From contig CAZNJU010000001.1 of the NCBI GenBank assembly GCA_964573625.1, positions 589,879 through 653,878 on the forward strand: a stretch of 64,000 bases of DNA, given 5' to 3'. This DNA comes from Candidatus Woesearchaeota archaeon. Its GTDB lineage: Archaea; Nanobdellota; Nanobdellia; Pacearchaeales; GW2011-AR1. The position numbers were made by a program, and so were the translations under genes. Below the pieces are notes generated by a model that had not been told where the DNA came from, searched no databases, and worked only from the letters and a program-made list of their open reading frames with translations. Numbering within the stretch: position 1 is the stretch's first letter; each line of letters starts with the position of its first letter. Of this stretch, positions 12,082 to 64,000 are shown in pieces.

Positions 12082-12426
12082 ATGGTTCAAGCAAACACAG
12101 GATTAGAAAAAAATGTAACAGCTCGTGTCTGGGGAATACCTGTAGAACTTATTCCAGAACAGACAGAAATATCCCGATACGGATTCGGAGGTCAACGCCT
12201 AAAGTATATCGGTGACGAGTTTGCCGACGGAGGAAGCAGACGTTCAATATTTCTCTCTCACGATCAAGACGGAAGTCAACCATATATTTCACGAGTAGTT
12301 ATTCCACACCAAAACGATGCTCACGGAACGTCACTCGCGATGACTGCGGCCGTAGAGACAAGAACTCTTCAAAGTATGCCTGGATACGAACAGCTGTTCA
12401 ACATATTATTCAAAAACAAAAGATGA
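12082..12426 (+). CDS. Hypothetical protein between groES and groEL
   Basis: 114-aa ORF abutting the groES stop and overlapping the groEL start. Confidence 0.65.
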
Positions 12427-14030
12427 CAAAACAAATAATTTTTAGCGAAGAAGCACGACGCGCATTACAACGCGGTATTGACAAAGTTGCAAACATTGTC
12501 AAAGTTACACTCGGTCCACGTGGACGTACCGTTATCCTTGATAAAGCTACAACTCCACTTGTTTCTAATGATGGGGTTACAATAGCGAAAGAAATCGAGT
12601 TGAAAGACAAGTTTGAAAATATTGGTGCTAAACTTGTCAAGGAAGTAGCTTCACAAACACAGGATAAAGCAGGCGACGGAACAACAACTGCCACGGTTCT
12701 CGCACAATCAATGATTACTGAAGGTCTAAAAAACATTGCAGCAGGTTCTAATCCTGTCGAAATAAAACGAGGGATAGAAATTGCAACCGAAAAAGTAGTC
12801 CAGTACATAAAGTCACAATCAACGGAAGTTAAGGACAAGCAGAAGATAGCACAGGTTGCAACTATCTCTGCAAATAATGATGAGAAAATAGGCTTCCTTA
12901 TTGCTGAAGCAATGCACAAGGTAGGCAATCACGGCGTTATCACCGTAGAAGAAGCTCAGAGCATAGATACAACTCTTGATGTCGTAGAAGGCATGCAATT
13001 TGATCGAGGCTATCTGAGCCCGTACTTTGTCACGGACCATGAAAAAATGGAAAGCTCGTACGAAAATCCTTACCTTCTTATTACCGATCAGAAAATATCC
13101 AAAGTTAAAGAAATTCTTCCTATTTTAGAGATGTGTGCACAGGAAAGCAGACCCCTCGTAATTATAGCCGACGAACTAGAGGGCGAAGCACTCACAGCGT
13201 TGGTTATCAACTCAATTCGCGGCGCGTTGAAAGTATGCGCGGTAAAGGCCCCAGGATTCGGAGACGAACGTAAAGACATTCTGGACGATATCTCTATACT
13301 TACAGGAGCAACAGTAGTTGCATCAGATCGCGGAGACAAATTAGAAGAAATGGATATCACTTCACTAGGTAGCGCAAAAAAGATTAAAGTAACTAAAGAT
13401 GCAACAACTATTATTGAAGGAAAAGGTTCAAAAGACAATATCGATAAACGCGTTCAGAGCATACAATCTCAGATAAAATCAGCTGACGCAGAGTATAAAC
13501 GAGATGAATTACAAAAACGCCTTGCAAAGTTAAGCGGCGGAGTTGCAGTCATAAATGTTGGTGCTGCTACAGAAACCGAGCTCAAAGAGAAAAAATTGAG
13601 AATTGATGATGCCTTACATGCAACGAAAGCGGCAGTGGAAGAAGGCGTCGTTATTGGTGGCGGTCTCACACTGTTCCATTCAATAAAAGTTCTAGACAAT
13701 CTCAATCTATCACTAGGTGAGACTATCGGAATATCAATCGTACGTCGCGCTCTCGAAGAACCGCTCCGTCAAATTGCGTTCAATGCAGGTAAGGAAGGTT
13801 CAGAGGTTGTTGCAACTATCAAATCTCAAAAAGACCCTGCGTACGGATTTAACGCAAAGTCAAGCACGTATGAAGATCTCTTTAAAGCCGGAGTTATTGA
13901 TCCTACGAAAGTAGTTCGCACTGCCCTCCAAAACGCCGCAAGCATAACAGGGATGGTTGTCACAACCGAAGGCCTAATAGCAGATTTCGATGATGAGAAG
14001 GACGAAAAATCAGATCAGATCATCATCTAA
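12423..14030 (+). CDS. groEL: Group I chaperonin GroEL
   Basis: [43 protein letters not shown] motifs; no GGM tail. Confidence 0.97.
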
Positions 14031-27761: not shown

Positions 27762-28552
27762 TTAATCTCGGCACGTGTCTGCCTCAAAAGCTGTTTGAGT
27801 TTCTGCTTAGTGTCATCAATGCCCCTATTCAGCCGTTCTTGCAATTAACACTTAATCTCTTATCAGAACCCATTAATCTTAACCTCTTTGTGAATATGTG
27901 GGTTATTGTCATTTATTGTTTATCGATGTTCTATGCGCTGTTGCTCTTAGCATCTGGCTTTAACTTCATGATTTCAGGTTATGACTCAGCCAAACGAGAG
28001 AACGCAAAGAGCTGGCTCAGAAACGTGGTTATTATGATTGTGCTGGTTCAAGCATCCTTCTTTATCTACCAACTCGCTATTGATTTGTCCGCAAGTGTAA
28101 CCTCTGCTACACTTACCTTAGTTGATCACAATTTCTTTCTCATCACGCTCAACAGTATTTCCGATCTGGGAATGGCGTTACTCTTCGGACTCATTTACAT
28201 CATGACGCTTATTGTAACGTCTTTGGTGTTGGTTATTCGGTATACGTTTGTAGCGATCGGCGTGGTCTTGTTTCCCGTAGCTATTTTCTTTTATTTCATG
28301 CCGCCTCTAAGATCGTATGGCTCGTTGCTCCTTAATTTCTTAGGAAGTGCTATTTTTATCACGGTTATTGATGCAATACTATTAGCCGGCTTCTCGCAAT
28401 TGGTAAACGTGAGTATCTTTGGCAATATGAAAGTAATTGTGCTTATTGCAGCCTTTCTATGTATCAGCGCCTTCATGCTCTTTATTCTCTGCTTTAGTAT
28501 TGTCAAAGCAGGCTTTAGCGTCTATCATGAAGTAAAGAGGTTCAAGTCCTAA
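27743..28552 (+). CDS. Polytopic membrane protein, VirB6/TrbL-like position
   Basis: About 6 TM segments; lies between the pilin and VirB4 genes; TTG start. Confidence 0.65.
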   Translation: MVDCGLINLGTCLPQKLFEFLLSVINAPIQPFLQLTLNLLSEPINLNLFVNMWVIVIYCLSMFYALLLLASGFNFMISGYDSAKRENAKSWLRNVVIMIVLVQASFFIYQLAIDLSASVTSATLTLVDHNFFLITLNSISDLGMALLFGLIYIMTLIVTSLVLVIRYTFVAIGVVLFPVAIFFYFMPPLRSYGSLLLNFLGSAIFITVIDAILLAGFSQLVNVSIFGNMKVIVLIAAFLCISAFMLFILCFSIVKAGFSVYHEVKRFKS

Positions 28553-50865: not shown

Positions 50866-52068
50866 TTAGGGAGAGACTGCATGTTCCTTAAGCTTACGAA
50901 CCAGAACTTCGTACACCTCCTTATCATTAATGAGCATATCGAGCATACTATTGATTCCTTTCGTTTCCGCTTCCTTGACTAATATCTCTTGCGCTGCCTC
51001 TTTGTGTAATACGAAGCCACAAACATTACAGAACTTGTTAGTTGTAGGATTAGACTGATGACAGCGTAAGCATGAAAGAGGCTTAAGCTTTGGTTCAATA
51101 ATCGTTTGTGCAGTCGCAATGTTATTCGCACGCAAGATTGCATCATCTGCATCTCTGCCCGACATGTGCACGTAAATGCCTGCCATCTTAGATCCCTGTG
51201 TCCACCCAAAGTAATGCTTCATAGCTGCTTCACTCATAATCTTAGCAAGATGTGTGGCTCTGCTATGTCTAAACAAGTGTGCATGCACATGTTTCTTAAT
51301 GCCTGCGCGTGATGCAGCCAGTTTAATCACATCTACCATACGAGTATAGGTCAAAAAACCGTTAGAGCTTTGCGGATTCCACCAGACCGGTGCTTCAGGA
51401 TCGAAATTCTTCGGATGCACATTAATCCATTGTTGTAAATACGGCGCACTATTAATCACTAATATCTTGCGCATACCGGTTTTACCATTGACAGTAAGGC
51501 GAGCACCATGTTGTTCAAACGAAATATGCTTAATACGCATGGTTCCAATCTCAGAAATCCTGCATCCCGATTCAGCAAGCGACGCAATCAAAGCCTTATT
51601 GCGGAAGGTATCGCACGCTTGTATCATTTGAAGTGATTCTTCTTCAGTTAGCAGCTCTTCAGGCAATTTTCGAGTGCTTTCATGCAGCGCAATAGAAATC
51701 CACTTGACTTCCAACGGATAAACGCCTTTATCAGTGATGCCTCGCATGTACCGATAGAGCTTACGAGTCATAACTTTGAAGCACTTCTTACTTTCAGGAG
51801 CTAAATCTGTCTGTTCAAGATCAGCAATAACGCGTCGTAAGTCCTTCTCAGTCGCATCTCCAAACGGCATGCCCAACATCTTGCTTAATTTTCGTACATC
51901 AAGCAAATACCGTCCAATCTTAGCGACACCAATCCCTTCACTTAGAAGATAATCCTTGAACGCGATAGCCGTTTCTTTATTAATGGGGCTCATATCTATA
52001 GAATTCTTAATGAGTGCAATCTGGCGATCCAGCTGCCCTTTGTAATCGTGTAAGTCTATCGTCATCAT
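50866..52068 (-). CDS. Tyrosine recombinase/integrase with a C-terminal zinc ribbon
   Basis: ESGCRISE, GKTG, HLFRHSR, FGW, IYVH; CLRC..CNVC. Start refined. Confidence 0.92.
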   Translation of the reverse strand: MMTIDLHDYKGQLDRQIALIKNSIDMSPINKETAIAFKDYLLSEGIGVAKIGRYLLDVRKLSKMLGMPFGDATEKDLRRVIADLEQTDLAPESKKCFKVMTRKLYRYMRGITDKGVYPLEVKWISIALHESTRKLPEELLTEEESLQMIQACDTFRNKALIASLAESGCRISEIGTMRIKHISFEQHGARLTVNGKTGMRKILVINSAPYLQQWINVHPKNFDPEAPVWWNPQSSNGFLTYTRMVDVIKLAASRAGIKKHVHAHLFRHSRATHLAKIMSEAAMKHYFGWTQGSKMAGIYVHMSGRDADDAILRANNIATAQTIIEPKLKPLSCLRCHQSNPTTNKFCNVCGFVLHKEAAQEILVKEAETKGINSMLDMLINDKEVYEVLVRKLKEHAVSP

Positions 52069-52140
52069 CGTGTCATGTGATAACGCATCCTCGGTGCTTT
52101 TTATAGCACGATCATCAGACGGGCGTGCAACCAACTCTAA

Positions 52141-52266: not shown

Positions 52267-53418
52267 ATGAAAATAGATCCAAAGAAAAACAAAGAACGCT
52301 ACCTCGGGTGGCAGGAAAGCATCAAGCACGGCATTTCTGACATGAGTAAGGAGAACGCGGATATTCTGTTGCGTTACCTTGCAGACATGCAGTTAGGCGT
52401 TAATATTGCGTCGAAAAGCCCCAAAGGTGCACGAAGTTACGGGCGTTTAAACGATTTAAAAGATAAGATGCGCTTTTTCTCCAAACGATTCAAGGAGCAA
52501 TTAGGTCTTGATCACATTATCGATATTAACGAAGATCAGCTTATCCGTTTCTTCGCAGATATGCGAAACGGGGTATTCAAAAAAGCTGACGGTAGGCCCT
52601 ATACCGGAATAGATACCTTTGGACGCGTGTTCAAAGCGTTTTGGCACTGGCATATGAAATCCAATAAGAAAAAAGGTATTGACATCCCCGATATTACGAT
52701 AGATTTGGATACGCGTGGAGAAAAGCCCGATTGGGTCTATTTAACCGAAGAACAAGTCAAGCATCTGGCAGAGACTGCAAAATACAAGTATAAAGTCCTT
52801 ATTTTGTTCTTATTCGATTCAGGCATACGAGCACCTACGGAATTGGTAAACGTGCGTGTTTCCGATTTATACAATGACTGTAAAGAACTCAATATTCGGG
52901 AAGAATCCGCGAAAACGTTTGGAAGAAGAATAAAGCTTTTACTGTGTTCTGAACTGGTAAAACAATACATCAAAGATAATAATCTCAAGCCTGAAGACCA
53001 ACTCTTTCCGATCAATGCAACGGTTGCCAATAGACAACTCAAGCGATTTGCTAAGCGCATATTCAAAGACGAACCAAGTCCTGCGGGCCAGAGCTATTGG
53101 CAATTAAGCATGTATGATTTCAGGCACTGCTCGTGTTGTTATTGGTTACCTCGCTATAAGTCTGAAAGTGCATTAAAGTATCGCTTCGGCTGGAAAAAAT
53201 CGGACAAGATTCATTATTACTCGGAGTTGTTAGGTATGAAGGATACGATTTCAGAGGAAGATATGCTAATCGATACCACTAAAACTGATATTGAGAAGAG
53301 CCTCCAAAGAGCCGAAAATGAAAAAGCTCTTATGGAAGAAAAGATGCATGCAATGGAGTTACAAATGGCAACCGTTATGGAATTGGTTAAGCAGGTTGGA
53401 AGTTTGAAGAAAGAATAA
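52267..53418 (+). CDS. Second tyrosine recombinase-like integrase (divergent family)
   Basis: DSGIR, KTFG, YDFRH, FGW, HYY; C-terminal coiled coil. Confidence 0.82.
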   Translation: MKIDPKKNKERYLGWQESIKHGISDMSKENADILLRYLADMQLGVNIASKSPKGARSYGRLNDLKDKMRFFSKRFKEQLGLDHIIDINEDQLIRFFADMRNGVFKKADGRPYTGIDTFGRVFKAFWHWHMKSNKKKGIDIPDITIDLDTRGEKPDWVYLTEEQVKHLAETAKYKYKVLILFLFDSGIRAPTELVNVRVSDLYNDCKELNIREESAKTFGRRIKLLLCSELVKQYIKDNNLKPEDQLFPINATVANRQLKRFAKRIFKDEPSPAGQSYWQLSMYDFRHCSCCYWLPRYKSESALKYRFGWKKSDKIHYYSELLGMKDTISEEDMLIDTTKTDIEKSLQRAENEKALMEEKMHAMELQMATVMELVKQVGSLKKE

Positions 53419-53426
53419 ACTTGTCT

Positions 53427-54626
53427 CTATAAATTAATTTTAATAACGCTGGAGCGATTAAGATACGCACGAGTGCGTGGGAAAAAAGATCCGGATTTGA
53501 GATACAATGTCGTAATCTGTGACATGCGTGACTCGCTAAGGGATGGTTCTGCTTCATCACCTGCTTGTGCCAACGTAATTCCATCCATAATAACGCGACG
53601 TATGGGATCACGATAGCGCTCAGGTATAGCGCGTAAATCTCGTTCGAAACAATTCATCAAGTCATTATTCTCACATTCTACAACAGGGTTATCCTTTAAA
53701 GGCGCGGTAACTCTCTCAGATAATTGATAGTCGTTTCTTGAATGCCCATTGCGTTGCTTTCGATCTGCATCAAGACTTGCGATACTTCCACCGCGTATCC
53801 ACACATCACTATAGAAATGTTCAAAGGAATCAATCGGAAGTGCTCGTCGTTCCCACTCAGCATACAAATCTTCTTTAGAGGGAACAATTCCTTGAGATTC
53901 CTTGAACGTATGAGCAAATTTGGAAAATTCATCAAGACGCGTTCGATCTAAACGGGGTAAATGATCGCTTGCACGAATGCCATCTAATATGGCTCCGCGT
54001 ATACGGGGAGCGCAATACGTTTCAAATCGCACATTGCATGCAGGATCATATTTTTCTATCGCATCAAGCAGACCAACATTTCCTTCTCCTATCAAATCCT
54101 CCAAATCAACAAAATCAGGCAATTTAGTGTGCATTCGCTGAGCCACGTCACGTACGATTTTCTGTCCTTCAACCGCAAGTTTACTCCGATAGAGTTGATT
54201 ATGCGTTGTTGCATAGAGGTTTGCCAGATTAGTAAGTCCTTTAGCACCCGTCTCTGGAACACAAATATGAACATCCCCAACGTGAATGTACAAGTCAGGA
54301 ACACCTTCAATCGTATGTTCTTCAACGATTCTTCTTCCATCACGTTCAAGATTAAGTAATCCGTCAAAAGGCGCACCTACCTGCTCAGCAAGGAGATACG
54401 CTGAGACGAGAGGTGTTTGTTCAGGAGGTATATTTGACTGCCGCGATAGTAAATTGGCGACAAGCGCCCCTAAATATCCTTTTTTCTTATCTTGATGTGC
54501 TTGAAAAGAATCATCACGTAACGTCTGCATGAAGGTTCCGTTTAATCCTCGAGCTTTCAAGTCCGCTTCCGAAAGAATCGCGAGTAAGTCTTGCTCAGCT
54601 ATCTCACGATTTGGTCGTTCGCTCAT
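53427..54626 (-). CDS. Sigma-70 family (FliA/WhiG-like) protein with an N-terminal extension
   Basis: Region 2 DLEDLIGEGNVGLLDAIEKYDP..RFETYCAPRIRGAILD; region 4 GITLAQAG..LSESRMSQI. Start refined to MSERP. Confidence 0.85.
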   Translation of the reverse strand: MSERPNREIAEQDLLAILSEADLKARGLNGTFMQTLRDDSFQAHQDKKKGYLGALVANLLSRQSNIPPEQTPLVSAYLLAEQVGAPFDGLLNLERDGRRIVEEHTIEGVPDLYIHVGDVHICVPETGAKGLTNLANLYATTHNQLYRSKLAVEGQKIVRDVAQRMHTKLPDFVDLEDLIGEGNVGLLDAIEKYDPACNVRFETYCAPRIRGAILDGIRASDHLPRLDRTRLDEFSKFAHTFKESQGIVPSKEDLYAEWERRALPIDSFEHFYSDVWIRGGSIASLDADRKQRNGHSRNDYQLSERVTAPLKDNPVVECENNDLMNCFERDLRAIPERYRDPIRRVIMDGITLAQAGDEAEPSLSESRMSQITTLYLKSGSFFPRTRAYLNRSSVIKINL

Positions 54627-56638
54627 AAGCTTCTTTCCGTCCAACTTGATAGACTCTAATAAAATCACCAAACCTAAACCTCACAGGGGTTGATTTATTA
54701 TTAAGAGCAATATTCAATCCTCGTTGCTTGGCAAACCCTAACACTTTGGTGACTTCGTCAATTTTAATGCCGCTTGCTCGTGCAAGTTCAGGAATCGTAT
54801 AGGCTTGATTATATGCCTCAGTAAACGCTTGTTCAGGGTTAGCATCGGATCGCCGCATGTCTACTGCAGGAGAGCGTAACAAAGAATACACGCGATCAAT
54901 ACAGGTCTGTTCAACAACGTAAGCATGATGATCTGTTTTTTCTCCTGCTCGATACACAAACGGTTCAACTTTTTTCCCTACTTGATTAAGAATACCATGG
55001 AATCGTTCCATTACTGTCGTAAGATTAGCAGCTCCACGGGATGAACCATTGGCTTCAGCGAGTTTGTCATGAACCACTTCATAAAGTGTGGTGAATCCAT
55101 GCATCATTTTCTGTGCTTCCAAAAAGTCCTTCCCCAGCACTCCTTCCTCTTGTACATGGAATGCACTTCCTTCAGCCAAATACCGAATAGCACCAAGACC
55201 TTTCTCTGATAAACGTCCGAGATCAGTAAGTTGATACATCACCATCGGATGAATCTCACTTTTCAACGTTTCTCGCTCAGAAGTTGCTTGTAATTGTTCC
55301 CAGAGCTCTCCGCGTCGTTTAAGGAAATCTTGCAACGGGCTTTTTCCGCGCTCAGTATCTTCGAGTGCGAGTGCATCGATAACTGCTCCAATGACGGCTT
55401 GTTCATATCGCGGAACGGTAGTTACGGATGTAGGAACTAACGAAGGATGCTTATTATTGAGATAAATTGCATTTGTATCAGGATAGTGTCTGCCAGGAAT
55501 GATGGCATCAATATCATCTGAAAATTCTACTGATGTATTCTTATCAATACCCTCGACTTTGGCGCGTACTAATTGTGAGAGTGCTTTTTGTGTAATACGA
55601 TTGCGCTGTCCTTGTACTTTGGTAACCATAGAACGCTCGCTCGTATCGCGAGTATATTGTTCAACGACTCCGACGGCCTTTGCAAGAGTCTTTCCGAGTT
55701 CTACAACGCCCGGATGATCTTCTCTAAAGCGTCCACGATCAAAGAGAATTGCTTCCTCGAGACTGTCTGCATGGACAATGCCAATAATGCGGTCTCGCAT
55801 CGATAATCGATCTTGTCTCAAGAACGTTTTAGGATCTCCAATCTTGCGACCATTGACATACACATGTACTCCCGTCATGAGTGCTTTTTTGTTAGTTAAA
55901 TATAAATTACCTCTAATAGAACCCATGTGTTTGCCTTCGGTATCCAGTTTGAAGATGGTGGCACTTTCAATTTGTTTGGATTGTACTGCTTCTCCATTAA
56001 CGTAGACTTTGAAATCAGGAAGCAACGGAAGATCCCATTGAATACGGCGTTTTAATTCAGCAAGCGAGAAATTATCTCCTTCAGCAAATTTAAGGCCCTT
56101 AAGTAATAAACTGGTTCCATGCGCGTTGGGATCGGTTGAAACTTCTCTTCCCATAATAGGCTTATCAGAAGATACGCGCTCTTCAAGCTGTTCATGAATA
56201 ATGGTTTTTCTACCCTCTTGCTCAGTCGTTAACTTATAGCCGTTACATAACGAACGTAAAAGAATCGTTGCAACTCCAAACTTTCCAATGCGCATTCGTC
56301 CCGCCGCGCTAATCGGTTCTTTGATTTTAGGGCTGTCGCCTAATCGATAAAATGATTCAAGACCTTTTTCGGCCGTCATGCCTGAACCATTATCTTTGAG
56401 CCGCAGTGCATCCAATTCAGGACGGTAGTCGATATCAACGCGTGTTGCATCAGCATCGTACGCATTTGCGATTAATTCTTCTAATGCAGGAATAGTACCC
56501 GTTACAACGAGATTGGCAATAAGATCAGGAGCATTGCTTCCGAGATTACGCGTAAATGTTACGTCCCTTTCGCGAGGGGGGGGGGGCGATCAGGGTTTTT
56601 GAATTACTTTGAGCCGCGGAAACCGTAGATTTTGCCAT
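54604..56638 (-). CDS. GHKL (MORC/HATPase_c_3-like) ATPase, frameshifted at a C11 tract near its 5' end
   Basis: ELIANAYDADA, DNGSGM and GKFGVA lie in one frame; the ATG at 56638 joins it only with C10 or C13 (677 aa with C10). Confidence 0.82.
56576..56586 (+). repeat. G11 homopolymer (candidate phase-variation tract)
   Basis: Direct read; lies after codon 17 of the GHKL gene. Confidence 0.9.
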
Positions 56639-56910
56639 GCTAAAAGGTCTTCTTAATGGTTTTTAAGCATTTCTACAATGCTTCTTCTAAACTTTATTCT
56701 TAGTGCGTTGCTCTCACAACTATAATAATTCCAGATAATAGGAAAGCAATGATTGTAACGATATAGATCGAGGGATCGTTAAATCCAGCGAATAGGTTAA
56801 TCAATCCCGTAATTAAACTTACAAAAAAGACAATCCACAGAAGAACATCTAATTTTTTCATGGACACTTAAGAAAGAGTAACTTTATAAATTTCGCCTCT
56901 CTCGAATTAT

Positions 56911-57408
56911 ATGCCTCTCCTGCAACCTCGGAAGATACGCGGTTCGATGGATGATGGGTATTACACTCCTAATGATACGACTGATGCTTTTGCAACAACT
57001 GTGTATCGAGATATTGTTAGCGGACTACCTTTTACGTTTAGGGAAGAGATACGTGATGGAGTGCTTCTAACGAGAACTAAATTTGGTGTTTCAGCAGATA
57101 CGAGTCTTGAATTTTGGATGACGACTTCAGATCGTCGAGAGCAGTTCCCGCTATTTGGAGATGTATGTTTTCACCAGCCTAAATCAGCTATGGATGGGCA
57201 TGCATATCCGTACACGTTTTCAAAAGGCGAACGTTTCGCAGAAATGCTTAGATTAAAAGAACCGCCGTTCTATAGAATTGCTCATTTTACAGATACGCCT
57301 CTTGTCATTACTTCAGAAGCTTCCGATACTGTTCCTCTCGTTATACCCCAACCGCAATCAATGGTTAGATTACATCAGAAATTAAAAGCCCGCGGCGTCA
57401 TGCAATAA
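56911..57408 (+). CDS. Hypothetical protein
   Basis: 165-aa ORF with an upstream TTTATAAA. Confidence 0.6.
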   Translation: MPLLQPRKIRGSMDDGYYTPNDTTDAFATTVYRDIVSGLPFTFREEIRDGVLLTRTKFGVSADTSLEFWMTTSDRREQFPLFGDVCFHQPKSAMDGHAYPYTFSKGERFAEMLRLKEPPFYRIAHFTDTPLVITSEASDTVPLVIPQPQSMVRLHQKLKARGVMQ

Positions 57409-57481
57409 TTGCCAATTTAGTTACTACTCTTAAGATACAATGTATCGAAAAGCTTAAATACCTATTATTTGTAGAGAAAAT

Positions 57482-58219
57482 ATGGCCTTAAACCTCAATG
57501 ATCAGGCAGTACGATTGCCGTATGAAGAATTCTACGGAGAAGTACGAGCACAAATGCCAAAGCTCTTGGCGGACAAGCGTATGCCTCTTTCGGTAGCCGG
57601 TCTTATGGAACGACGCCTCAATTCTACTCAAACCGCTGAATGGAGAGATAATTATTTTGGCATGGGCGATGCCATTGCGTACAAAGGAGATGCTTTCAAA
57701 GTTGTTGCTGATGCACCTCTCTTGAGAGAACTAACTGCAAACACTCGGTTGAAAGCAGGCGCGGTACTGCTTGCCGATGGATTATATGAAACATTTGACG
57801 GCACTGAATTCTCACGTAAGGATTTGTCTAAAGTAATGGGTCGAGATTTGACTGCTGCCGATGCTAAGAAACATCCCGTCTGGCAAGCGCTTGCTCGCGG
57901 TGATCAAGGATTACTTGATGCTTATACGGATATGACGTTTGCTGATACAAAAGCTCGTTTTGGTTACACTGAAAACATGGGTGTTTATCTCGATGACTCG
58001 AAAGAACCACATGCACGGGCTTGGTTTGTCGGCAGGGCGTACTACAGGTCGCAGGCCAGTGGCGACTGTGATCTTGACTACAGGAGCGGTCGCTTGGTCG
58101 GGGTAGCGCCGGAGGCGCTCAGTGCGCCGGGTAAGGCTATTGTAATGCCTTCCCTTGAAACTGCATTGACTGTTGTGAACCAACATATAGGAAACAAATT
58201 GAAATTGCAACAGCAATAA
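57482..58219 (+). CDS. DGR target (variable) protein, probably CLec-fold
   Basis: Contains the VR (RAWFVGRAYYRSQASGDCDLDYRSGRLVGV) followed by 37 more codons. The fold is inferred from other DGR targets. Confidence 0.9.
   Translation: MALNLNDQAVRLPYEEFYGEVRAQMPKLLADKRMPLSVAGLMERRLNSTQTAEWRDNYFGMGDAIAYKGDAFKVVADAPLLRELTANTRLKAGAVLLADGLYETFDGTEFSRKDLSKVMGRDLTAADAKKHPVWQALARGDQGLLDAYTDMTFADTKARFGYTENMGVYLDDSKEPHARAWFVGRAYYRSQASGDCDLDYRSGRLVGVAPEALSAPGKAIVMPSLETALTVVNQHIGNKLKLQQQ
58017..58107 (+). repeat. DGR variable region (VR)
   Basis: Matches 58943-59032 except 13 substitutions, all at TR adenines, and one 1-nt indel. Confidence 0.95.
58105..58119 (+). promoter_or_regulatory. DGR target-recognition hairpin AGCGCC-GGA-GGCGCT
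   Basis: Perfect 6-bp stem with a GRA loop immediately after the VR. Confidence 0.8.
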
Positions 58220-58738
58220 ATGAATTCTAACGAAGAAGCACTTAGATTATTTTATCTAGACCATCTCTTTACTAAGTCAACAAAAAATGTAGAACCTATC
58301 TCTTTGGAATTCCTTTCTTCTACTTTCAATGAACTATCTGAAAGAGTTTTTTCTATGTCTTTTGAAGACATCTTAAAACAGATTCGTCTTTCTGAGACTT
58401 TAACTTTTTGGTCGTGTGCTTATTTGAACAAAAATTGTACTCAGATTGAACTTCCTATAGAAAAAGCATGTGCGGATGATAGACATATAGCCATAGATAG
58501 CCATCTTGTTTCTCAAGGGACTCTTTTATCAAGCCTCTTGGAAAAAGCATATCTCTTATCTGAATTGCGTGAAAGGATTGATTTTCCTAAAAAGTTTTCT
58601 CCATTTTTCTTAGATGAAGCATTCCCCATAGTACGAAAGTACGGAGAGTTATATGAGGTTTTAATGGGTAATCATCGAGTCATGGCTGCAATTGAACTTG
58701 GTCTAGAAAAAATTAAAGCGATATGTTTAGAAGAATAA
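58220..58738 (+). CDS. ParB/Srx-like domain protein within the DGR
   Basis: C-terminal PIVRKYGELYEVLMGNHRVMAAIELG motif; abuts the target stop codon. Confidence 0.65.
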   Translation: MNSNEEALRLFYLDHLFTKSTKNVEPISLEFLSSTFNELSERVFSMSFEDILKQIRLSETLTFWSCAYLNKNCTQIELPIEKACADDRHIAIDSHLVSQGTLLSSLLEKAYLLSELRERIDFPKKFSPFFLDEAFPIVRKYGELYEVLMGNHRVMAAIELGLEKIKAICLEE

Positions 58739-58812
58739 TCTTTTTTCAACATACATAATTGAGTATCATCTATCTTTTATAGCTCATTTCTAAACTCTTC
58801 TATCCTAGCTAA

Positions 58813-59034
58813 CTATGCAACAAGGATGCATAGAGTATCTGGGGCTACACGTCCTTTCATGACGGCGCTTCGGCGTCATAAAATACAGCTGCAACAGAAA
58901 TGAAGCGGCAGTGAAGGGGTATCCATGAAAGGGCTATTCCTGGGGCTTGGTTTGTCAACAGGGCGAACAACAGGTCGCAGGCCAATGGCAACAATAATCT
59001 TGACAACAGGAACGGTCGCTTGGTCGAATAGCCC
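58813..59034 (+). ncRNA. Putative DGR template RNA: structured leader plus TR
   Basis: Stems at 58813-58819/58827-58833, 58851-58861/58924-58934 and 58931-58939/59026-59034; a cUUCGg hairpin near 58870. Boundaries are approximate. Confidence 0.65.
58943..59032 (+). repeat. DGR template repeat (TR)
   Basis: AAC/AAT-rich copy of the VR. Confidence 0.95.
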
Positions 59035-60520
59035 ATGATGCTGCTAGGATATCATACTATGTACGAACAACTGTGCTCAGAAGAAAATCTTCTTAGTGCA
59101 TTTTACAAAGCGCGGAAAGGCAAGACACAGCGACATTATGTGCAAGTATTTGAAAAAGAGCTAGATAAAAATCTAAAGCAGCTAGAACAGGAGTTACGTA
59201 CTCAGACCTATCAACCTAAGCCCCTAACAACATTTGTTATTCGTGATCCAAAGACGCGTAAAATTTCTAAATCTCGATTCAGAGATCGAGTAGTACATCA
59301 CGCACTCATTAATGTTATCGGCCCCGTTCTACAAAAACGCTTTATTTATGATTCACATGCGAATCAGGTTGGTAAAGGAACGTTAAAAGCAGTTCAACGT
59401 TTCGAGCTCTTTAAACGAAAAGTGTCTCGTAATAATACTCGTCCCTGTTACGTGCTTAAATCAGACATTAGGCATTATTTTGAAGAAGTCGATCATGCTA
59501 TTCTTCTCAAGCTTATTAGTAAATATGTTCGAGACGAGCGCGTGATGTGGCTCATTCAACAGATTCTCGCTAACAATGTACATCTTTCCTTTAATGCGAA
59601 CTTTAGGACGCAGAGAGAGAGAGAGTACTAACAAGGGAATGCCCTTAGGCAATCATACTTCACAGTTCTTTGCGAATGTCTATCTGAATGAACTAGATCA
59701 ATTTGCAAAACACGTTCTTAAAGCACCGTATTACTTACGATACGTTGACGATTTTGCCATTTTATCTAACTCGTATTCAATGCTTCTACAGTACAAGGAA
59801 CGCATCAATGTGTTTCTAAAAGAGCATCTTAAACTTGAATTGCATCCTCAAAAATCTCATATTCTCTCGTTACATTCGGGCGTTTCTTTTCTTGGGTATC
59901 GCATTTTTCCGCATCACAAACTATTACGAAAACGTAACGCGCGTGCGTTTGAACGAAAGATGGGAAAATTGAGAGTTTTATACCACGAAAAGCAAGTTTC
60001 ACGAGATCAAGTGGTTGATCGACTTCAAGGATGGTTGGCTTATGCCGAACACGCCGATACGTACACTTATCGAAAAGAAATATTACGAAACTTTAATCGG
60101 TTTTTTCCCTTTAAAATAGAAAAAGCACTGTTGTCCAAAAGAGCGAGAAATTTCTATAAAAAAGTAGCTGCAAGTAAAATACAAGGAAGCGTTCAAAAAA
60201 CGCTCGACCTAGCAAGAAAAAAGATGTCAGTCACAGAAATAGCTACGCTTCGTAAAATAAAAGAAGGAACGGTCTGGGAACATTATGCAGAATTAATTGA
60301 ATACGGATGGTTGTCTATTTGGTCTATTCTTCCGCGTAAAACTATTGTAACGGTTTTACCCTATATACGAAACTCAAGTGATACTCTCACAACAATAAAG
60401 AGTCGGTTAAAAGTAAGCGGCATATCTTATGATAGTATTATGTGCGTTCGCGCCCATATACGATACAAGGAAAAAATAAAACGATGGTCAAGACGATATC
60501 ACAAAAATTATTTGGGATAA
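59035..60520 (+). CDS. DGR reverse transcriptase, split by a frameshift at (AG)7, with a C-terminal HTH
   Basis: Frame 1: RDPKTRKI, FRDRVVHHA, KSDIRHYF. Frame 2: GMPLGNHTSQFFANVYL, RYVDDF, FLGY. (AG)8 gives one 495-aa ORF. Confidence 0.93.
59612..59625 (+). repeat. (AG)7 dinucleotide tract at the RT frameshift
   Basis: Direct read CAGAGAGAGAGAGAGTACTAA. Confidence 0.92.
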
Positions 60521-60592
60521 AATAAAACATGAATAATCCAAGTAGAGAAAAGTCTATTAAATGCTAAATATCTCTTTTTCAGGGTATAAACG

Positions 60593-61609
60593 ATGAAAAA
60601 TCCACAAGGAATACCGTTAGGATTAGACCCAGAAGCGAAATCAGCTTCTAAAAACTTGCCCGCATTTCTTACTCCGCCTAAGGGTTCAAAGGCTTATCAT
60701 GGATTTCCACTTGTAAAGGACATAAGTGAGGACGGATTTACGTATGGAATGATTACCCAATTTGAGTCAAACACTAAAGAAGGCTACGACTCTGGAGATG
60801 CCTATGTAGAGGCTCCAGACGGCTCACGTGCAGGCATCGTGTGGGGAAGAGAAACCGCCTTTTCTCATAATATCATTACAAAAATAGAGAAAAATCGCTG
60901 GGGAGTTTATTACTTTGCAATCCCGTTTAAAATAAAAACGAAAGATGACATGAGAAAGGCATTCGATTTGATGCTCCCTTACCTAAAAGAATATTACCGC
61001 ATATCTAAGGCACACATAACGTGGAAAGATAATTTCAGAAGACTCAACAAAGAATTACATTCAATGCAGCGAGGGCCTGTACCCGATAACGAAATTGAAA
61101 AAGATATTTACATAGAACTTGATCAAATAACCTCCTATCTTTATTCTCGCCTCGGCTTGAAAGCACGATGGATAGGACTGATTAGATATCTCCCAAGCTT
61201 AAATGTGACTCTCCTCAAAAGAGATTTGTTAAACGTGAATCAATTGATCGAACAAAGAGGATGGTCTCACTTTAGGAAAAATAGGTTATTGCTTAAGGAG
61301 TATCTCCTGGTAACAGAAATAGTTGAAGTTGTCAAGACCGTTAAAGGAAAAGGAGTTTTCGAGTCTCAAGGAATAAAGAGCCGTAGCCAATTAGGACTTG
61401 AGGAAGAAGAGATTTACAGCAATCATATTATGGGGCTAGTTAAAGTAGCTACTGAAAGAAAAATGCCTATTGAGAAGTTCACCTTAGATAAAGAACTGAC
61501 TCATCATCTTTTCGAATTGTCAAAAGCTGAATGTAGAAAAGATACAAAAACAACTAAAATTTTATTGAAAAAAGTTCAGGATAGGATAAAGGTTCTTTGC
61601 AAAAAGTAG
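60593..61609 (+). CDS. Hypothetical two-domain protein
   Basis: N-terminal YHGFP..GDAYVEAPDGSRAGIVW motif of an uncharacterised family. Confidence 0.7.
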   Translation: MKNPQGIPLGLDPEAKSASKNLPAFLTPPKGSKAYHGFPLVKDISEDGFTYGMITQFESNTKEGYDSGDAYVEAPDGSRAGIVWGRETAFSHNIITKIEKNRWGVYYFAIPFKIKTKDDMRKAFDLMLPYLKEYYRISKAHITWKDNFRRLNKELHSMQRGPVPDNEIEKDIYIELDQITSYLYSRLGLKARWIGLIRYLPSLNVTLLKRDLLNVNQLIEQRGWSHFRKNRLLLKEYLLVTEIVEVVKTVKGKGVFESQGIKSRSQLGLEEEEIYSNHIMGLVKVATERKMPIEKFTLDKELTHHLFELSKAECRKDTKTTKILLKKVQDRIKVLCKK

Positions 61610-61676
61610 TCGTTTTAAGACGTAGAATATTTTGAGAGGTAAGATTTAAAAGTCTATAAAAACAAGGTATTTTGTT

Positions 61677-61748
61677 GCTCGCTTCGTATAGTGGTTAGTA
61701 CACGACCCTGTCGCGGTCGGAACGCGGGTTCGATTCCCGCAGCGGGCG
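61677..61748 (+). tRNA. tRNA-Asp(GTC)
   Basis: GCTCGCT...CGACC-CTGTCGC-GGTCG...GCGGG-TTCGATT-CCCGC-AGCGGGC G73. Confidence 0.95.
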
Positions 61749-61767
61749 ATTTTATCGTCGATAAATA

Positions 61768-61947
61768 CTAACTTAACTTCTTATTAATTTCAGTCAGAAG
61801 CAATTCAATCTTGGCAAGATGTGACTGCCCTTTCAGTTTCTGCCTGCATAATTCTCCTAATGAAGTTCCACTGTCTAGCGCTTGTTTTCGTAATGACTCT
61901 ATAACGTCTGTTTCTATTCTAAGATGGATTTGAAAGTTTTTTCTCAT
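61768..61947 (-). CDS. Small RHH/CopG-like protein (not in the ORF track)
   Basis: MRKNFQIHLRIETDVIESLRKQALDSGTSLGELCRQKL, 59 aa. Confidence 0.6.
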   Translation of the reverse strand: MRKNFQIHLRIETDVIESLRKQALDSGTSLGELCRQKLKGQSHLAKIELLLTEINKKLS

Positions 61948-62030
61948 CAGGATTTGTTACAATCTTCTTTTCTATTTTGAGCCGGTCAATTATCCTTCGC
62001 AATTCTTCAATAATGGTATCAGGATCAACT

Positions 62031-62594
62031 TTATTGTATTCCATGCACACTCCTGTTGAATTTCCTCGTCTCGTTCCCCCAGCAATCCCATCCTTTGACC
62101 GTTTGCCGTGCAAAAAGCTCAATACGCGGAAGATCTCCGAGCAATTCAACAATCTGATCGCGTATTTCGTCAGGCTTTCGACTGTGTTCACGCAGTGGAG
62201 AAAGGACGACCTGTCGGACTTTATTCGATTTTCGCTTCAGATTTCCTTTTAGTCCTAAGAGACAAACTTCTGCGTTAGCTCGCGTCCAGTTTCCCATACC
62301 CATAAAAGGTCGACCGTTATTCTTGTTCGTCTTAATCCATGTAAAGGCTACCGTAATATACCTAAATCCCCAACTCTTTAGCGTTTCAATACACTCAGGG
62401 AGGATCGGATAGGCTGCCCACATAAAGAGTGCACAATCCTCGTCAGCAATTTGTTGAGCGGGAAATTGCTTAATGATTTCAATCGGAATAGTAGGATATT
62501 TGACTTTCGTGCTATACTTCCACGGAGGATCAGCATAGATAATATTGTACTTCTTACGAAGATTGACCTTCCACGTAACGGTTTCTTTCGTCAT
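62031..62594 (-). CDS. MT-A70 family adenine methyltransferase
   Basis: IIYADPPW, CALFMW, SWGFRY..FTW.K, EHSRKP, IELFAR, WGNE. Confidence 0.93.
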   Translation of the reverse strand: MTKETVTWKVNLRKKYNIIYADPPWKYSTKVKYPTIPIEIIKQFPAQQIADEDCALFMWAAYPILPECIETLKSWGFRYITVAFTWIKTNKNNGRPFMGMGNWTRANAEVCLLGLKGNLKRKSNKVRQVVLSPLREHSRKPDEIRDQIVELLGDLPRIELFARQTVKGWDCWGNETRKFNRSVHGIQ

Positions 62595-62716
62595 GCTAAC
62601 TACTATCCAGAATTGCTTAAAACAAATCGGGGAAAAGTTAGTTATCTAACCAGTAGTCCATTGAGTAGTCTGTTTTCTCCCCGACTCGTTTTATAATATG
62701 TTACGAATAGGTAATC

Positions 62717-62902
62717 ATGAAAGATTGCTGCTTGGTTTGTGACGTTGAACTCGGAAACTATGAAACTGATTTGTGCAGCACCTGTTTTGGCTTCTTTCAT
62801 AAAAAATACAAAAATAGACTCAAGAAAGGCTTGGGACGCTTCAGAAAACACAAAGCGTTCTTGAATACATGGCGATCAACTGAAAAGGAGGTGGAAGAAT
62901 GA
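62717..62902 (+). CDS. Small zinc-finger-like protein
   Basis: CLVC..CSTC; coupled to the pilin gene with a GGAGG RBS. Confidence 0.6.
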   Translation: MKDCCLVCDVELGNYETDLCSTCFGFFHKKYKNRLKKGLGRFRKHKAFLNTWRSTEKEVEE

Positions 62903-63228
62903 AACAGCACTTACTGGCTTTTATGGTTGTGGCAATCTTGCTTATTATGCCTCACGTTAGAGCAGATCCGTTCAATCAAACAATAACTCCTGAAGAACAG
63001 GCAACGTTTGACCATATTCTGGAGCCCGTGATGAAAGTGTACAATATGGTAAAATATATTGCGACCTTCATTGCCGTAATTATTCTGTTATTTGCGGGTA
63101 TTAGCTATATGGTAAGCGGTTCTGACCCTAAAAGACGGGAGAACGCAAAGAGCACGGTTATGTACGTTATTATTGGACTGATTGTGATCTGGGCAGCGCC
63201 ATTAGTGGTACAATTTATTGTAGGTTGA
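62899..63228 (+). CDS. TrbC/VirB2-like pilin, second copy
   Basis: 65/85 residues identical to 26612-26947 over the mature part (hand count). Confidence 0.82.
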   Translation: MKQHLLAFMVVAILLIMPHVRADPFNQTITPEEQATFDHILEPVMKVYNMVKYIATFIAVIILLFAGISYMVSGSDPKRRENAKSTVMYVIIGLIVIWAAPLVVQFIVG

Positions 63229-63229
63229 T

Positions 63230-63619
63230 ATGAATAAACTCCTTATAGCAGGGATAGTCGCGTGGAGTCTGGCTCTTGCGTGTGCGGAGCCAGCTCTCGC
63301 ATGCCCTTCCCGTATTTATTGCTCCAACTTTACTGATCCGATGAAGCGAACTGATTGTAATACCATCGTTTCGCAGCATTTTCCGTTTGAAGAACAACAT
63401 GAAATACTCTGTACCCTATGGGACTATGGGTACGAATGGCGGGGCTACGAACCGCCGCACTACCCTCCGTTAAACACGAGTCTTGTGTTATCGTATAAAG
63501 AAATAGATACGAGTCGGTTCCTCACCGCTATGAAAATAACTACTTTTATTGTATTCAATTATTTTCTTTATTGTTTTCTCACTCGCTCTTCCTTTACAAC
63601 GAGATGGCGTGCAGCTTAG
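63230..63619 (+). CDS. Membrane protein of the second pilin module
   Basis: Paralog of 26949-27338. Confidence 0.75.
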   Translation: MNKLLIAGIVAWSLALACAEPALACPSRIYCSNFTDPMKRTDCNTIVSQHFPFEEQHEILCTLWDYGYEWRGYEPPHYPPLNTSLVLSYKEIDTSRFLTAMKITTFIVFNYFLYCFLTRSSFTTRWRAA

Positions 63620-64000
63620 TTAATCTCGGCTCGTGTCTGCCGCAGATGTTCTTTGAGTTCGTACTCGGAATCATTAACGCACCGATTCAGCCGTTTCTGC
63701 AGCTCACGCTCCATTTGCTATCAGAACCAATCAATCTACACCTGTTCATGCACTTTTGGGCGATTATTGTGTACATGCTATCGATGTTCTACGCACTATT
63801 GCTCGTGTCTGCAGGGTTTAGCATGATGCTCGCAGGCCCCGATGTAGAAAAACGAGAGAAATCGAAAGAGTGGCTCAAAAACGTCGTGATTATGATTATT
63901 CTTGTGCAAGCATCGTTCTTTATTTATCAGCTTATCTTAGACCTAGCGGCAGCCATGACCTCTGCTACACTAACGCTTGTCGATGGTAATTTCTTCCTCA
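63604..64000 (+). CDS. VirB6-like polytopic membrane protein, second copy (truncated by the window end)
   Basis: MACSLVNLGSCLPQMFFEF..INAPIQPFLQLTL matches 27743-28552. Confidence 0.8.
   Translation, partial: MACSLVNLGSCLPQMFFEFVLGIINAPIQPFLQLTLHLLSEPINLHLFMHFWAIIVYMLSMFYALLLVSAGFSMMLAGPDVEKREKSKEWLKNVVIMIILVQASFFIYQLILDLAAAMTSATLTLVDGNFFL

Follow-up and report, generated by a model that had tools for sequence, protein, structure and literature searches.

The window, that is, the whole 64-kb stretch of DNA analysed here, contains a DGR cassette whose features are collected in Table 1. The variable region (VR) and the template region (TR) differ only where the TR has an adenine (11 of 11 mismatches), which bears out the statement of the preliminary description that the VR shows past diversification. 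A role of the hairpin behind the VR in retrohoming is inferred by analogy with the Bordetella phage DGR, and the 172-aa ORF is a putative accessory gene, inferred from its position only. Neither Pfam nor PADLOC gave a match for the target protein, the 172-aa ORF or the two neighbours of 165 and 338 aa, and no recognisable Avd was found in the cassette; the reverse transcriptase (RT) has a fused HTH_40 domain instead. When its two halves are joined, the RT protein matches RVT_1 (1.7e-22, residues 73-291, crossing the junction) as well as HTH_40 (2.4e-12). Its best match among solved structures is bRT 8ub7_A (E = 2.5e-40), to which the N-half aligns from residue 7 and in which GIPIGSLTSQLFAN is the counterpart of GMPLGNHTSQFFAN. 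Motif 4 is of the DGR type (G-x-P-x-G-N-x-T-S-Q). The C-half is identical to P0002, for which an exact look-up returned no record. The cassette shows an RT of the DGR clade, TR/VR differences confined to adenines and a 3'-terminal VR followed by a GC-rich hairpin, as expected of a DGR, while an intact RT frame, which is also expected, is missing, because it is interrupted at (AG)7. By ancestry and anatomy the cassette is a bona fide DGR, the present allele of which is OFF.

Table 1. Features of the DGR cassette and its surroundings (positions within the window; L181 is the same locus in an independent Logan assembly).
Feature	Position	Strand	Basis or remark
Second SSR, C11 at codons 19-22 of HATPase_c_3 gene, OFF	56576..56586	-	Frame analysis
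DGR target gene, 245 aa, VR at 3' end	57482..58219	+	ORF containing VR; without Pfam/PADLOC match
Variable region (VR)	58017..58100	+	84-nt direct repeat of TR, 87% identical
GC-rich hairpin GCGCC-GGA-GGCGC, candidate retrohoming hairpin (IMH region)	58106..58118	+	Just 3' of VR; read from sequence
172-aa ORF between target gene and TR, DGR accessory-gene position	58220..58738	+	ORF; identical in L181
Template region (TR)	58943..59026	+	Adenine-specific mismatches with VR; ends 8 nt before RT start codon
RT N-terminal half, motifs 1-3	59035..59631	+	Ends at TAA, 3 nt past tract
Codons of lineage-specific 18-aa loop insertion (NVHLSFNANFRTQRERE..) hosting repeat	59575..59628	+	phmmer alignment to bRT 8ub7_A
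RT C-terminal half: motif 4 GMPLGN (59636-59653), YVDD, thumb, fused HTH_40	59576..60520	+	ORF and domain matches
(AG)7 SSR, proposed switch	59612..59625	+	Now OFF; ON at 5, 8 or 11 units

The tract is a perfect (AG)7 of 14 bases reading AGAGAGAGAGAGAG, flanked by GACGC upstream and TACTAA downstream. It is the only dinucleotide run of more than four units in the window, and 100 dinucleotide-preserving shuffles gave 0 expected matches to an (AG)6 pattern. At this tract the RT gene is out of frame. The first ORF (ORF1, 198 aa) ends in FRTQREREY, and the frame of the second (ORF2), offset by +1, reads ...GRRERESTNKGMPLGN... through the same stretch. Changing the unit number in silico, we obtained a single ORF of 495 aa with eight units (...FRTQRERESTNKGMPLGN...) and of 493 aa with five, whereas with 4, 6, 7, 9 or 10 units translation terminates at aa 196-205. 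This reproduces what had been described beforehand, namely two halves in different frames that are joined again by one additional AG or by the loss of two. The unit number hence decides between a full-length and a truncated RT ORF, as is expected of an SSR contingency locus.

The preliminary description had also put the break exactly into (AG)7 ahead of TACTAA. Since the frames of ORF1 and ORF2 are both open over 59546-59628, the sequence of the window alone cannot place the break in the tract; it is the comparison with related RTs that does so. The N-half frame through NANFRTQRERE agrees with the family consensus NANF..Q(RE)n, the codons GCG AAC TTT of which are in the ORF1 frame of the window (about 170 relatives listed as well as the N-half homologues). 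A 1-nt insertion upstream of the tract, at 59591-59600, was considered as another site of the break, prompted by the closest homologue (P0001/L001, 71% identity), in which the flank GCGAACTTTAG.ACGC is read in the ORF2 frame of the window. It was rejected because the family consensus matches the ORF1 frame. L001 is the odd one and carries a compensating upstream indel. The phmmer alignment further leaves a gap of 18 residues in bRT 8ub7_A, between ..VLPD and EGVGIPIG (motif 4), opposite the loop insertion that hosts the repeat.

A survey of related RTs for RERE-coding tracts and their lengths had been proposed at the outset, and its outcome strongly supports the interpretation given there. Scanning for (AG) tracts of at least five units lying 3-30 nt upstream of GGNATGCCNYTNGGNAAY, we found 50 genome loci and at least 120 metagenome loci, while the same scan of viral contigs gave 0 matches. 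Scans of genome_contigs and metagenome_contigs for the exact flanking DNA gave no match. A tract of 5-25 units is thus present in the same loop before motif 4 in at least about 170 loci, which come from 134 lineages among the matches listed; the hosts of these are nearly all DPANN MAGs, with some CPR. The alleles that are ON, in frame +1 and in frame +2 number 9, 20 and 18 in the genome set and, among the matches listed, 15, 48 and 47 in the metagenome set. After removal of duplicates the 134 lineages listed hold 137 alleles, 21 of them ON and 58 in each of the two wrong frames. Hence 85% of the unique alleles listed are OFF, and the ON share is 15% where chance would give 33% (p = 2.8e-6). 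Only perfect tracts of five or more units enter into this share, which leaves out stabilised ON genes in which the tract is interrupted.

Both halves of the gene, which had been regarded as otherwise intact in the window, are likewise preserved in the relatives. Among the matches listed, nearly all loci have an intact N-half of about 180-250 aa and a C-half of at least 150 aa, although the fused proteins have a median pairwise identity of only 60%. The tract-bearing genes are therefore not decaying. In 130 of the 133 OFF loci listed, the tract lies inside a short stretch in which both frames are open. Between tract and motif 4, the downstream frame is open at 37 of 38 loci (the other two frames at 18 and 17 of 38), and over the 60 nt that precede the tract the upstream frame is open at all 38 (the others at 1-2 of 38). 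There are three exceptions, in which a change of the tract alone gives no rescue: L027, with a stop between tract and motif 4, L093 and L138.

Moreover, the excess of broken genes is seen without any conditioning on the tract. From the union of two protein-search lists, re-scored, the closest homologues of the N-half (at least 260 bits) are N-half-only in 38 cases and full-length in 7; at 240 bits or more the counts are 75 and 39. The truncated homologues end after GGG runs (59) or after RERE (20), and in the protein collection the majority of the nearest homologues appear as two separately annotated genes. Sister RTs carry poly-G (G12-G16) at the same loop, with OFF genes split into 186+304 aa and 186+291 aa and an ON gene of 481 aa. 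About 990 kb of fetched loci contain no other homopolymers of G or C of at least nine. Poly-G at the loop of the sister RTs is, as far as can be read from their sequences, a case of convergence.

The preliminary description had invoked phase variation at an SSR, and alleles that differ in unit number alone lend support to this. Allele pairs were either nearly identical or shared at most about 80% of their protein sequence (dS saturated). Among the matches listed, 29 lineages are represented two or more times, and 11 of them have tracts of more than one length. Lineages with several lengths came from groundwater series such as Ga0180007/Ga0180008, Ga0209541/Ga0209542 and Hainich H41-H52. Without a single substitution, L068 and L135 have 19 and 16 units (9,446 nt), L017 and L149 16 and 18 (3,224 nt), and L059 and L151 9 and 8 (1,004 nt). 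The related L051, L084 and L148 have 11, 10 and 9. An OFF and an ON allele were found within one lineage: L066 (9 units, OFF) and L132 (10 units, ON) are 97.7% identical over 2,303 nt, the tract is their sole gap, and the 500 nt flanking it are identical. Length polymorphism that includes ON and OFF alleles of one lineage, a further mark of a contingency locus, is therefore met in the relatives. In the organism studied here, no length polymorphism of the RT tract was found; the window and the independent Logan assembly (SRR16481183, locus L181), compared over window positions 53058-64000 (10,943 nt, 0 substitutions), both have seven units and identical VRs, and these are consensus sequences only, without reads.

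The tract-bearing cassettes also show signs of activity. A TR/VR pair adjoins the RT in 81 of 116 loci, and in 68 of these 81 at least 80% of the mismatches fall on TR adenines. Between L033 (8 units, OFF) and L088 (10 units, OFF) there are 12 substitutions in 2,602 nt, and all 12 lie in the VR; between L051 and L148 it is 3 of 4. The VR has thus been diversified recently in lineages that are now OFF. L034 and L113, both with (AG)7 and OFF, are 15 VR substitutions apart. This counts against a switch; to explain it, the tract must have slipped to ON and back again, or an OFF allele must have been expressed. Differences confined to the VR between alleles that are both OFF give an indirect hint of high, reversible switching.

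We consider it likely that the tract is a heritable, stochastic ON/OFF switch, operated by slipped-strand mispairing, which gates the mutagenesis by the DGR and which is OFF in the allele of the window. The repeat is predicted to sit in a lineage-specific insertion that forms a surface loop between motifs 3 and 4 of the RT; it encodes (Arg-Glu)n in every frame and never a stop, so that any in-frame length may be tolerated in the loop. Mispairing during replication would add or remove AG units. Of the three length classes, one (n = 5, 8 or 11 in the window) would be ON and yield full-length RT, whereas the other two would be OFF, with termination a few codons past the tract, and each OFF state would be one unit away from ON. 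Mutagenic retrohoming from TR to VR would then be confined to those cells or lineages in which the tract has slipped to an ON length, making hypermutation by the DGR a heritable, reversible and stochastic trait. The rate of switching, its reversibility in this population and the absence of active RT from OFF alleles are inferred, and so is the adaptive rationale, namely to limit the cost of hypermutation and to hedge bets. That only a subpopulation expresses the RT, as the preliminary description had proposed, likewise remains an inference, because the consensus sequences show no length polymorphism in this organism.

The OFF alleles might be bypassed at the level of RNA. RNA polymerase would slip by 1-2 AG units (or on poly-G), or the P-site tRNA would re-pair ±2 nt on AGA/GAG; every allele would then yield a little full-length RT, and the variation in DNA length would be a by-product or would set the level of expression. 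We think this improbable as the main explanation, but expression from OFF alleles by slippage at the RNA level is not excluded. It would agree with the OFF majority and the equal numbers in the two wrong frames among the matches listed, with the diversified VRs of L034 and L113, and with the perfect re-pairing of (AG)n after a shift of 2 nt. Moreover, about 9-10 of 131 unique segments have a strong hairpin of 7-10 bp, with co-varying stems, 3-7 nt downstream of the tract, and a hairpin shortly downstream is in the classical position of a frameshift stimulator. However, such a hairpin is not found family-wide (mean z = 0), there is none of note in the window, and as a general frameshift stimulator of the family it was rejected; in one sub-clade it might assist slippage. 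A programmed frameshift normally uses a fixed, short slippery site and a single direction, whereas the tracts have 5-25 units and would have to be corrected in both directions (+1 and +2 at 58 and 58 among the matches listed). If phase were neutral, about a third of the alleles should be ON, which is well above the share seen among the matches listed. Transcriptional slippage is known from A/T homopolymers and is not known to use AG or G runs. ON and OFF alleles of one lineage differ in their DNA, with the tract as the sole indel over kilobases, and therefore a heritable switch exists whether or not RNA bypass occurs. Beyond the switch in the DNA, (AG)n and poly-G could be a new kind of recoding site, at which slippage of RNA polymerase or ribosome by 2 nt leaks full-length RT in all phases; the tract would then be a three-level dial and the DGR never fully off. 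To this extension, too, we give only a small chance.

Much less credible is that the repeat is a non-adaptive hotspot, a fragile site that kills RT genes, and that the RT of the window is dead and being lost. The preponderance of out-of-frame alleles among those listed is what such a process would leave behind, and four loci (L027, L037, L024 and L043) carry extra damage. Yet nearly all of the 133 OFF loci listed keep both halves intact across lineages that are only about 60% identical, and stop codons are kept out of the downstream frame from the tract on. A perfect tract has been retained in the 134 lineages listed, a second type of SSR occupies the same loop, and the VRs of OFF lineages show very recent changes.

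Slightly weaker still is the notion of a split RT, in which OFF alleles make two polypeptides that join as an active enzyme, the C-half being translated by termination-reinitiation at the Met of GMPLGN. In 98 of the 116 OFF alleles listed, the stop of the N-half does lie within ±30 nt of this ATG (the median offset is +1 nt), but this closeness follows from geometry in AT-rich DNA. Before motif 4, the downstream frame contains an ATG in only 15 of the 116 and any start codon in 44. Reinitiation at the motif-4 Met would not need the open downstream frame between tract and motif 4 (37 of 38 loci), and the conservation of a hypermutable repeat would be left unexplained.

The least tenable reading is a sequencing or assembly error, with a true tract of eight (or five) units and an intact RT, a caveat of the preliminary description that we set aside as unlikely because L181 also has (AG)7, without a substitution over 10.9 kb, and because out-of-frame tracts are the rule (about 116 unique alleles) in many unrelated short-read assemblies (SPAdes NODE_, MEGAHIT k141), even though dinucleotide and homopolymer tracts are error-prone on some platforms; the tracts are, moreover, far shorter than assembly k-mers.

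The proposed slipped-strand switch resembles the SSR contingency loci known from the poly-G/C tracts of Neisseria, Campylobacter and Haemophilus and from the CT/AG tracts in outer-membrane protein genes of Helicobacter pylori. As in these, a perfect intragenic repeat sets the reading frame by its unit number, ON and OFF alleles occur per lineage, the tract is far more mutable than its flanks, and homopolymer and dinucleotide versions both exist. However, those tracts lie near the 5' end of genes for surface antigens or restriction-modification, whereas here the tract is in mid-gene, in a loop of the catalytic domain where it codes for tolerated (Arg-Glu)n or Gly-n, the gated gene is the polymerase of a second diversity generator, and the hosts are CPR bacteria and DPANN archaea. 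Phasevarions, based on phase-variable Type III/I methyltransferase genes, are alike in that an SSR toggles one enzyme affecting many phenotypes and thereby acts on a generator of variation; there the outcome is epigenetic regulation of a regulon, while here it would be a permanent rewriting of the target gene by mutagenic retrohoming.

Canonical DGRs (bRT/Avd/TR/VR of Bordetella phage BPP-1; bRT 8ub7) share with this cassette the RT alignment, motif 4, the adenine-only TR/VR differences and the VR at the 3' end of the target. They differ from it in lacking the SSR-bearing 18-aa loop insertion before motif 4, the C-terminal HTH_40 fusion and the interrupted RT ORF, and in having an Avd, of which none is recognisable here. 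In dnaX, in the transposases of IS elements and in the poly(A) rescue of endosymbionts, programmed ribosomal frameshifting or transcriptional slippage similarly joins two overlapping frames of one enzyme at a repeat, also in organisms with small genomes. The sites used there are fixed in sequence, length and direction, whereas here 5-25 units, all three phases and ON/OFF alleles differing in DNA are found.

To our knowledge, DGRs are the only prokaryotic systems for targeted protein hypermutation. CPR bacteria and DPANN archaea are particularly rich in them, and we know of essentially nothing on the control of DGR activity in these groups. If most RT genes there sit behind a hypermutable repeat, hypermutation would be a stochastic, heritable trait at the level of the population, and a second diversity generator would be gated by a contingency locus. 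Phase variation by SSRs would then also be widespread among archaea whose genomes are ultra-small. Pipelines that require an intact RT ORF would miss such DGRs or label them 'inactive'. The literature searched contained no account of such a repeat in the RT of a DGR, although an earlier mention in Paul et al. 2017 (PMC5436926) cannot be excluded.

A second SSR lies beside the cassette (Table 1). The extended ORF of this neighbouring gene matches HATPase_c_3 with 46 bits. The tract is G11 in the window and G10 in L181, where the gene forms one ORF of 677 aa. This could be an error of the kind to which homopolymers are prone; it is the sole difference between L181 and the window in 10,943 nt.

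The RT gene belongs to a complete DGR (diversity-generating retroelement) cassette, in which 11 of the 84 positions shared by the template region (TR) and the variable region (VR) are mismatched, every one of them a TR adenine. Within the 64-kb window, the (AG)7 repeat of the RT gene is the sole dinucleotide run to exceed four units; for an (AG)6 pattern, 0 are expected per 100 dinucleotide-preserving shuffles. When the number of AG units (n) was edited in silico, n = 8 gave a single ORF of 495 aa and n = 5 one of 493 aa, and at all other values from 4 to 10 the RT stopped at residues 196-205. The RVT_1 match of the fused protein spans the junction, and an HTH_40 domain lies at the C-terminus. 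The preliminary description had placed the RT halves in different frames split at (AG)7, to be rejoined by one AG more or two fewer, and had read past diversification in the VR. It is correct throughout, since ORFs, unit edits and domain matches agree, and the family comparison confirms the split.

Features of the window and poly-G tracts of sister RT loci
Feature	Position	Remarks
GroEL equivalog	12423-14030	799 bits
VirB4/TraG-like ATPase	28552-31506	
Two tyrosine recombinases	50866-52134 and 52267-53418	
FliA/WhiG-like sigma factor	53427-54671	
HATPase_c_3 gene	about 54604-56640	minus strand; homopolymer at codons 19-22, C11 on coding strand
DGR target ORF	57482-58219	VR at its 3' end
VR	58017-58100	inside target ORF, 3' end
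GC hairpin	58106-58118	
172-aa ORF	58220-58738	no assigned function
TR	58943-59026	ends 8 nt ahead of RT start codon
ORF1 (RT N-half)	59035-59631	198 aa; ends ...NANFRTQREREY, then stop
RT downstream frame	59576-60520 (open)	...GRRERESTNKGMPLGN...
Perfect (AG)7 repeat	59612-59625	GACGC-(AG)7-TACTAA
tRNA-Asp	61676	
TrbC-like pilin	62899-63228	
L172-174	L172 tract 3525-3536	G12, OFF; split genes, 186 + 304 aa
L175	tract 3532-3547	G16, OFF; 186 + 291 aa
L176-180	L176 tract 3537-3548	G12, ON; 481 aa

Relatives read GCG AAC TTT (..NANF..Q) and then (RE)n, exactly as ORF1 does, and therefore the frame of the window changes at the tract. The closest homologue, P0001 of locus L001 (71% identity), has (AG)10 in frame at the same place, and the L001 reading of GCGAACTTTAG.ACGC, the conserved flank, follows the downstream frame of the window (L001 2370-2412 versus window 59585-59625). 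A lesion upstream of the tract in the window, as this flank might imply, was ruled out by the wider family consensus. It is the flank and (AG)10 of L001 that differ in frame from the consensus, and a 1-nt difference upstream restores the frame. This apparent compensated frameshift is a footprint of past frame slippage.

We regard slipped-strand phase variation of the RT as the best-supported mechanism, and as a likely one. Slipped-strand changes in AG unit number would flip the RT between one full-length ORF (ON) and an out-of-frame state (OFF), and the window RT, putatively OFF, would need one unit of change to be ON.

A survey of related RTs for RERE-coding tracts, already proposed in the preliminary description, found the tract at the same site, with 5-25 units. 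Scanning for (AG)n of at least 5 units sited 3-30 nt upstream of the GMPLGN codons (motif 4) gave 50 loci in species-representative genomes, nearly all Woese-, Pace- and Nanoarchaeota MAGs with one Patescibacteria, and at least 120 matches in metagenome contigs; the same pattern had no match in viral contigs. Among the matches listed, the median length is 8 units. Phases were called by comparing the frames of motif 3 (DIxxYF) and motif 4. The genome set contained 9 ON, 20 (+1) and 18 (+2) loci, and the metagenome set, among the matches listed, 15 ON, with 48 and 47 in the OFF phases. Collapsing near-identical flanks left 134 lineages and 137 scorable alleles among the matches listed, 21 of them ON (15%) and 58 in each OFF phase, an ON share significantly smaller than one third (p = 2.8e-6). 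In some genomes, two DGR RT genes have the tract: L075 and L093 lie on one contig (Ga0209542_10005738), and L005 and L007, from one MAG, are related in their flanks and have 8 and 5 units, each apparently in frame. A few further (CT)5/(AG)5 runs occur elsewhere in RT-bearing loci (L010 2586, L036 5119, L040 1040, L045 3141, L048 838).

More than one unit number was found in 11 of the 29 lineages sampled more than once (among the matches listed), where some same-length pairs are one contig present in two collections. No substitution separates L068 from L135 (19 vs 16 units; 9,446 nt), L017 from L149 (16 vs 18; 3,224 nt) or L059 from L151 (9 vs 8; 1,004 nt), and L051, L084 and L148 have 11, 10 and 9 units. 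L066 (9 units, OFF) and L132 (10 units, ON) share 97.7% identity across 2,303 nt, where the tract is the sole gap, and do not differ in the 500 nt flanking it. Judged from these alignments, the AG tract appears to be hypermutable in the DNA. Several contigs from metagenomes (L084, with the tract at nt 3, L030, L079, L089, L171 and L075) break off no more than a few dozen bases from the tract, as would be expected if length heterogeneity within a sample broke the assembly graph; enrichment was not tested statistically.

A TR/VR pair adjoins the RT at 81 of 116 loci, and in 68 of these 81 at least 80% of the mismatches are at TR adenines (both among the matches listed). L033 (8 units, OFF) and L088 (10 units, OFF) differ, apart from the tract, by 12 substitutions in 2,602 nt, all within the VR. 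Of the four substitutions between L051 and L148, three fall in the VR. L034 and L113, both (AG)7 and OFF, differ at 15 VR positions. The VR differences between near-identical OFF pairs mean that the RT acted between alleles that are now OFF, and the DGRs behind OFF alleles are, or very recently were, active. Such action fits reversible switching, and is compatible as well with OFF alleles being expressed. The main rival is slippage on the repeat at the RNA level, by which OFF alleles would leak RT. Three observations among the matches listed support it: the L034/L113 pair, OFF phases of equal frequency, and a strong hairpin with co-varying stems that follows the tract in about 9-10 of 131 unique segments. 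In a sub-group (L126, L140, L048, L010, L060, L013, L036, L152), a stem of 7-10 bp (-6 to -14 kcal/mol) lies 3-7 nt downstream of the tract. The stem sequences vary, as do the encoded peptides (SWLEEPR, SCPSGK, VAAEGGR, ICPKDK), which suggests selection at the nucleic-acid level. The hairpin is not family-wide, being found neither in most loci nor in the window. We consider RNA slippage unlikely.

Non-adaptive decay of the RT genes is a poorer fit than the slipped-strand switch and seems very improbable. Among the matches listed, N-halves of about 180-250 aa and C-halves of at least 150 aa are unbroken in almost all loci, although identity among the RT proteins of tract-bearing loci is only about 60%. 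At 37 of 38 loci of the genome set, the downstream frame runs without a stop from the tract to motif 4 (other frames, 18 and 17), and at 38 of 38 the upstream frame likewise has no stop in the 60 nt that precede the tract (others, 1-2). Because of these counts, and since the tract lies within a short zone open in both frames at 130 of 133 OFF loci (among the matches listed), the frame junction is the tract. Selection appears to keep the fused reading available, and tract-bearing RTs are not decaying genes. A split RT whose second half starts anew at the GMPLGN Met also fits less well than the slipped-strand switch and is hardly to be expected. In 98 of 116 alleles among the matches listed, the N-half stop does fall within +/-30 nt of the GMPLGN ATG, but only 15 of 116 offer the downstream frame an ATG further upstream, and the open-frame constraint is left unexplained. 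In L027, a TAG directly precedes GMPLGN in the downstream frame, so that no tract length restores the fused RT; this locus is perhaps truly a pseudogene, or else the one case in favour of a restart at the motif-4 Met. Further exceptions are L093 and L138.

Assembly error at the tract, a caveat of the preliminary description and a poorer fit than the slipped-strand switch, is scarcely credible, since an independent Logan assembly of the same organism (L181, run SRR16481183) again has (AG)7 and the OFF state is thus reproducible. Over window 53058-64000 (10,943 nt), the two assemblies show no substitution and one 1-nt gap, a G11 run at 56576-56586 that is G10 in L181. In L181 the HATPase_c_3 gene, whose codons 19-22 hold the run, is a single ORF of 677 aa (start MAKSTVSAAQSNSKTLIAPPPRERDVTF..), and in the window it is split. 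Barring homopolymer error, the same genome therefore has an SSR-dependent ON/OFF difference one gene from the cassette. The gene is a candidate for a second phase-variable gene beside the DGR, or reflects a homopolymer sequencing error.

The window N-half was searched alone, and both protein lists were merged and re-scored locally. Homologues of at least 260 bits comprised 38 N-half-only gene calls vs 7 full-length RTs (75 vs 39 at 240 bits or more), and truncated N-half homologues ended after a GGG.. run (59) or RERE (20). In sister RTs from the same HTH_40-fused clade, poly-G is found in place of (AG)n in the same loop (DNA of L172-L180), and across the roughly 990 kb of DNA fetched, no other site has a G/C run of at least 9. 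Two distinct hypermutable repeats at one loop argue for selected mutability and against accident. Among solved structures, Bordetella phage bRT matches best (8ub7_A, E = 2.5e-40), and in the alignment an 18-residue insertion without bRT counterpart, NVHLSFNANFRTQREREST in the window, directly precedes motif 4. Since (AG)n yields (Arg-Glu)n, and never a stop, whichever frame is read, an insert of variable length is plausible in this loop, the structural tolerance being inferred.

SSR phase variation and DGRs are each well known. A literature search, in which Paul et al. 2017 was not covered, found no paper that describes phase-variable DGR control or a DGR RT containing an SSR. The finding is widespread and bears on the detection of DGRs and on whether they are taken to be active, and the proposed RT phase variation can be tested with existing reads.

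The region at about 24-64 kb of the window, whose source contig measures 760 kb, looks like an integrated conjugative-type element, with recombinase, ATPase and pilin genes and the tRNA-Asp as well as an SNF2 helicase, an MT-A70 methylase and a PIN/MazE pair. In several relatives, a TraG/VirB4-like ATPase gene lies directly 3' of the RT gene (entry names L175-L181). Judging by the GroEL equivalog and the sigma factor, the host would be bacterial and probably CPR-like, whereas almost every tract-bearing relative has a DPANN archaea label; either some of the bins are wrongly labelled or the element moves between domains.
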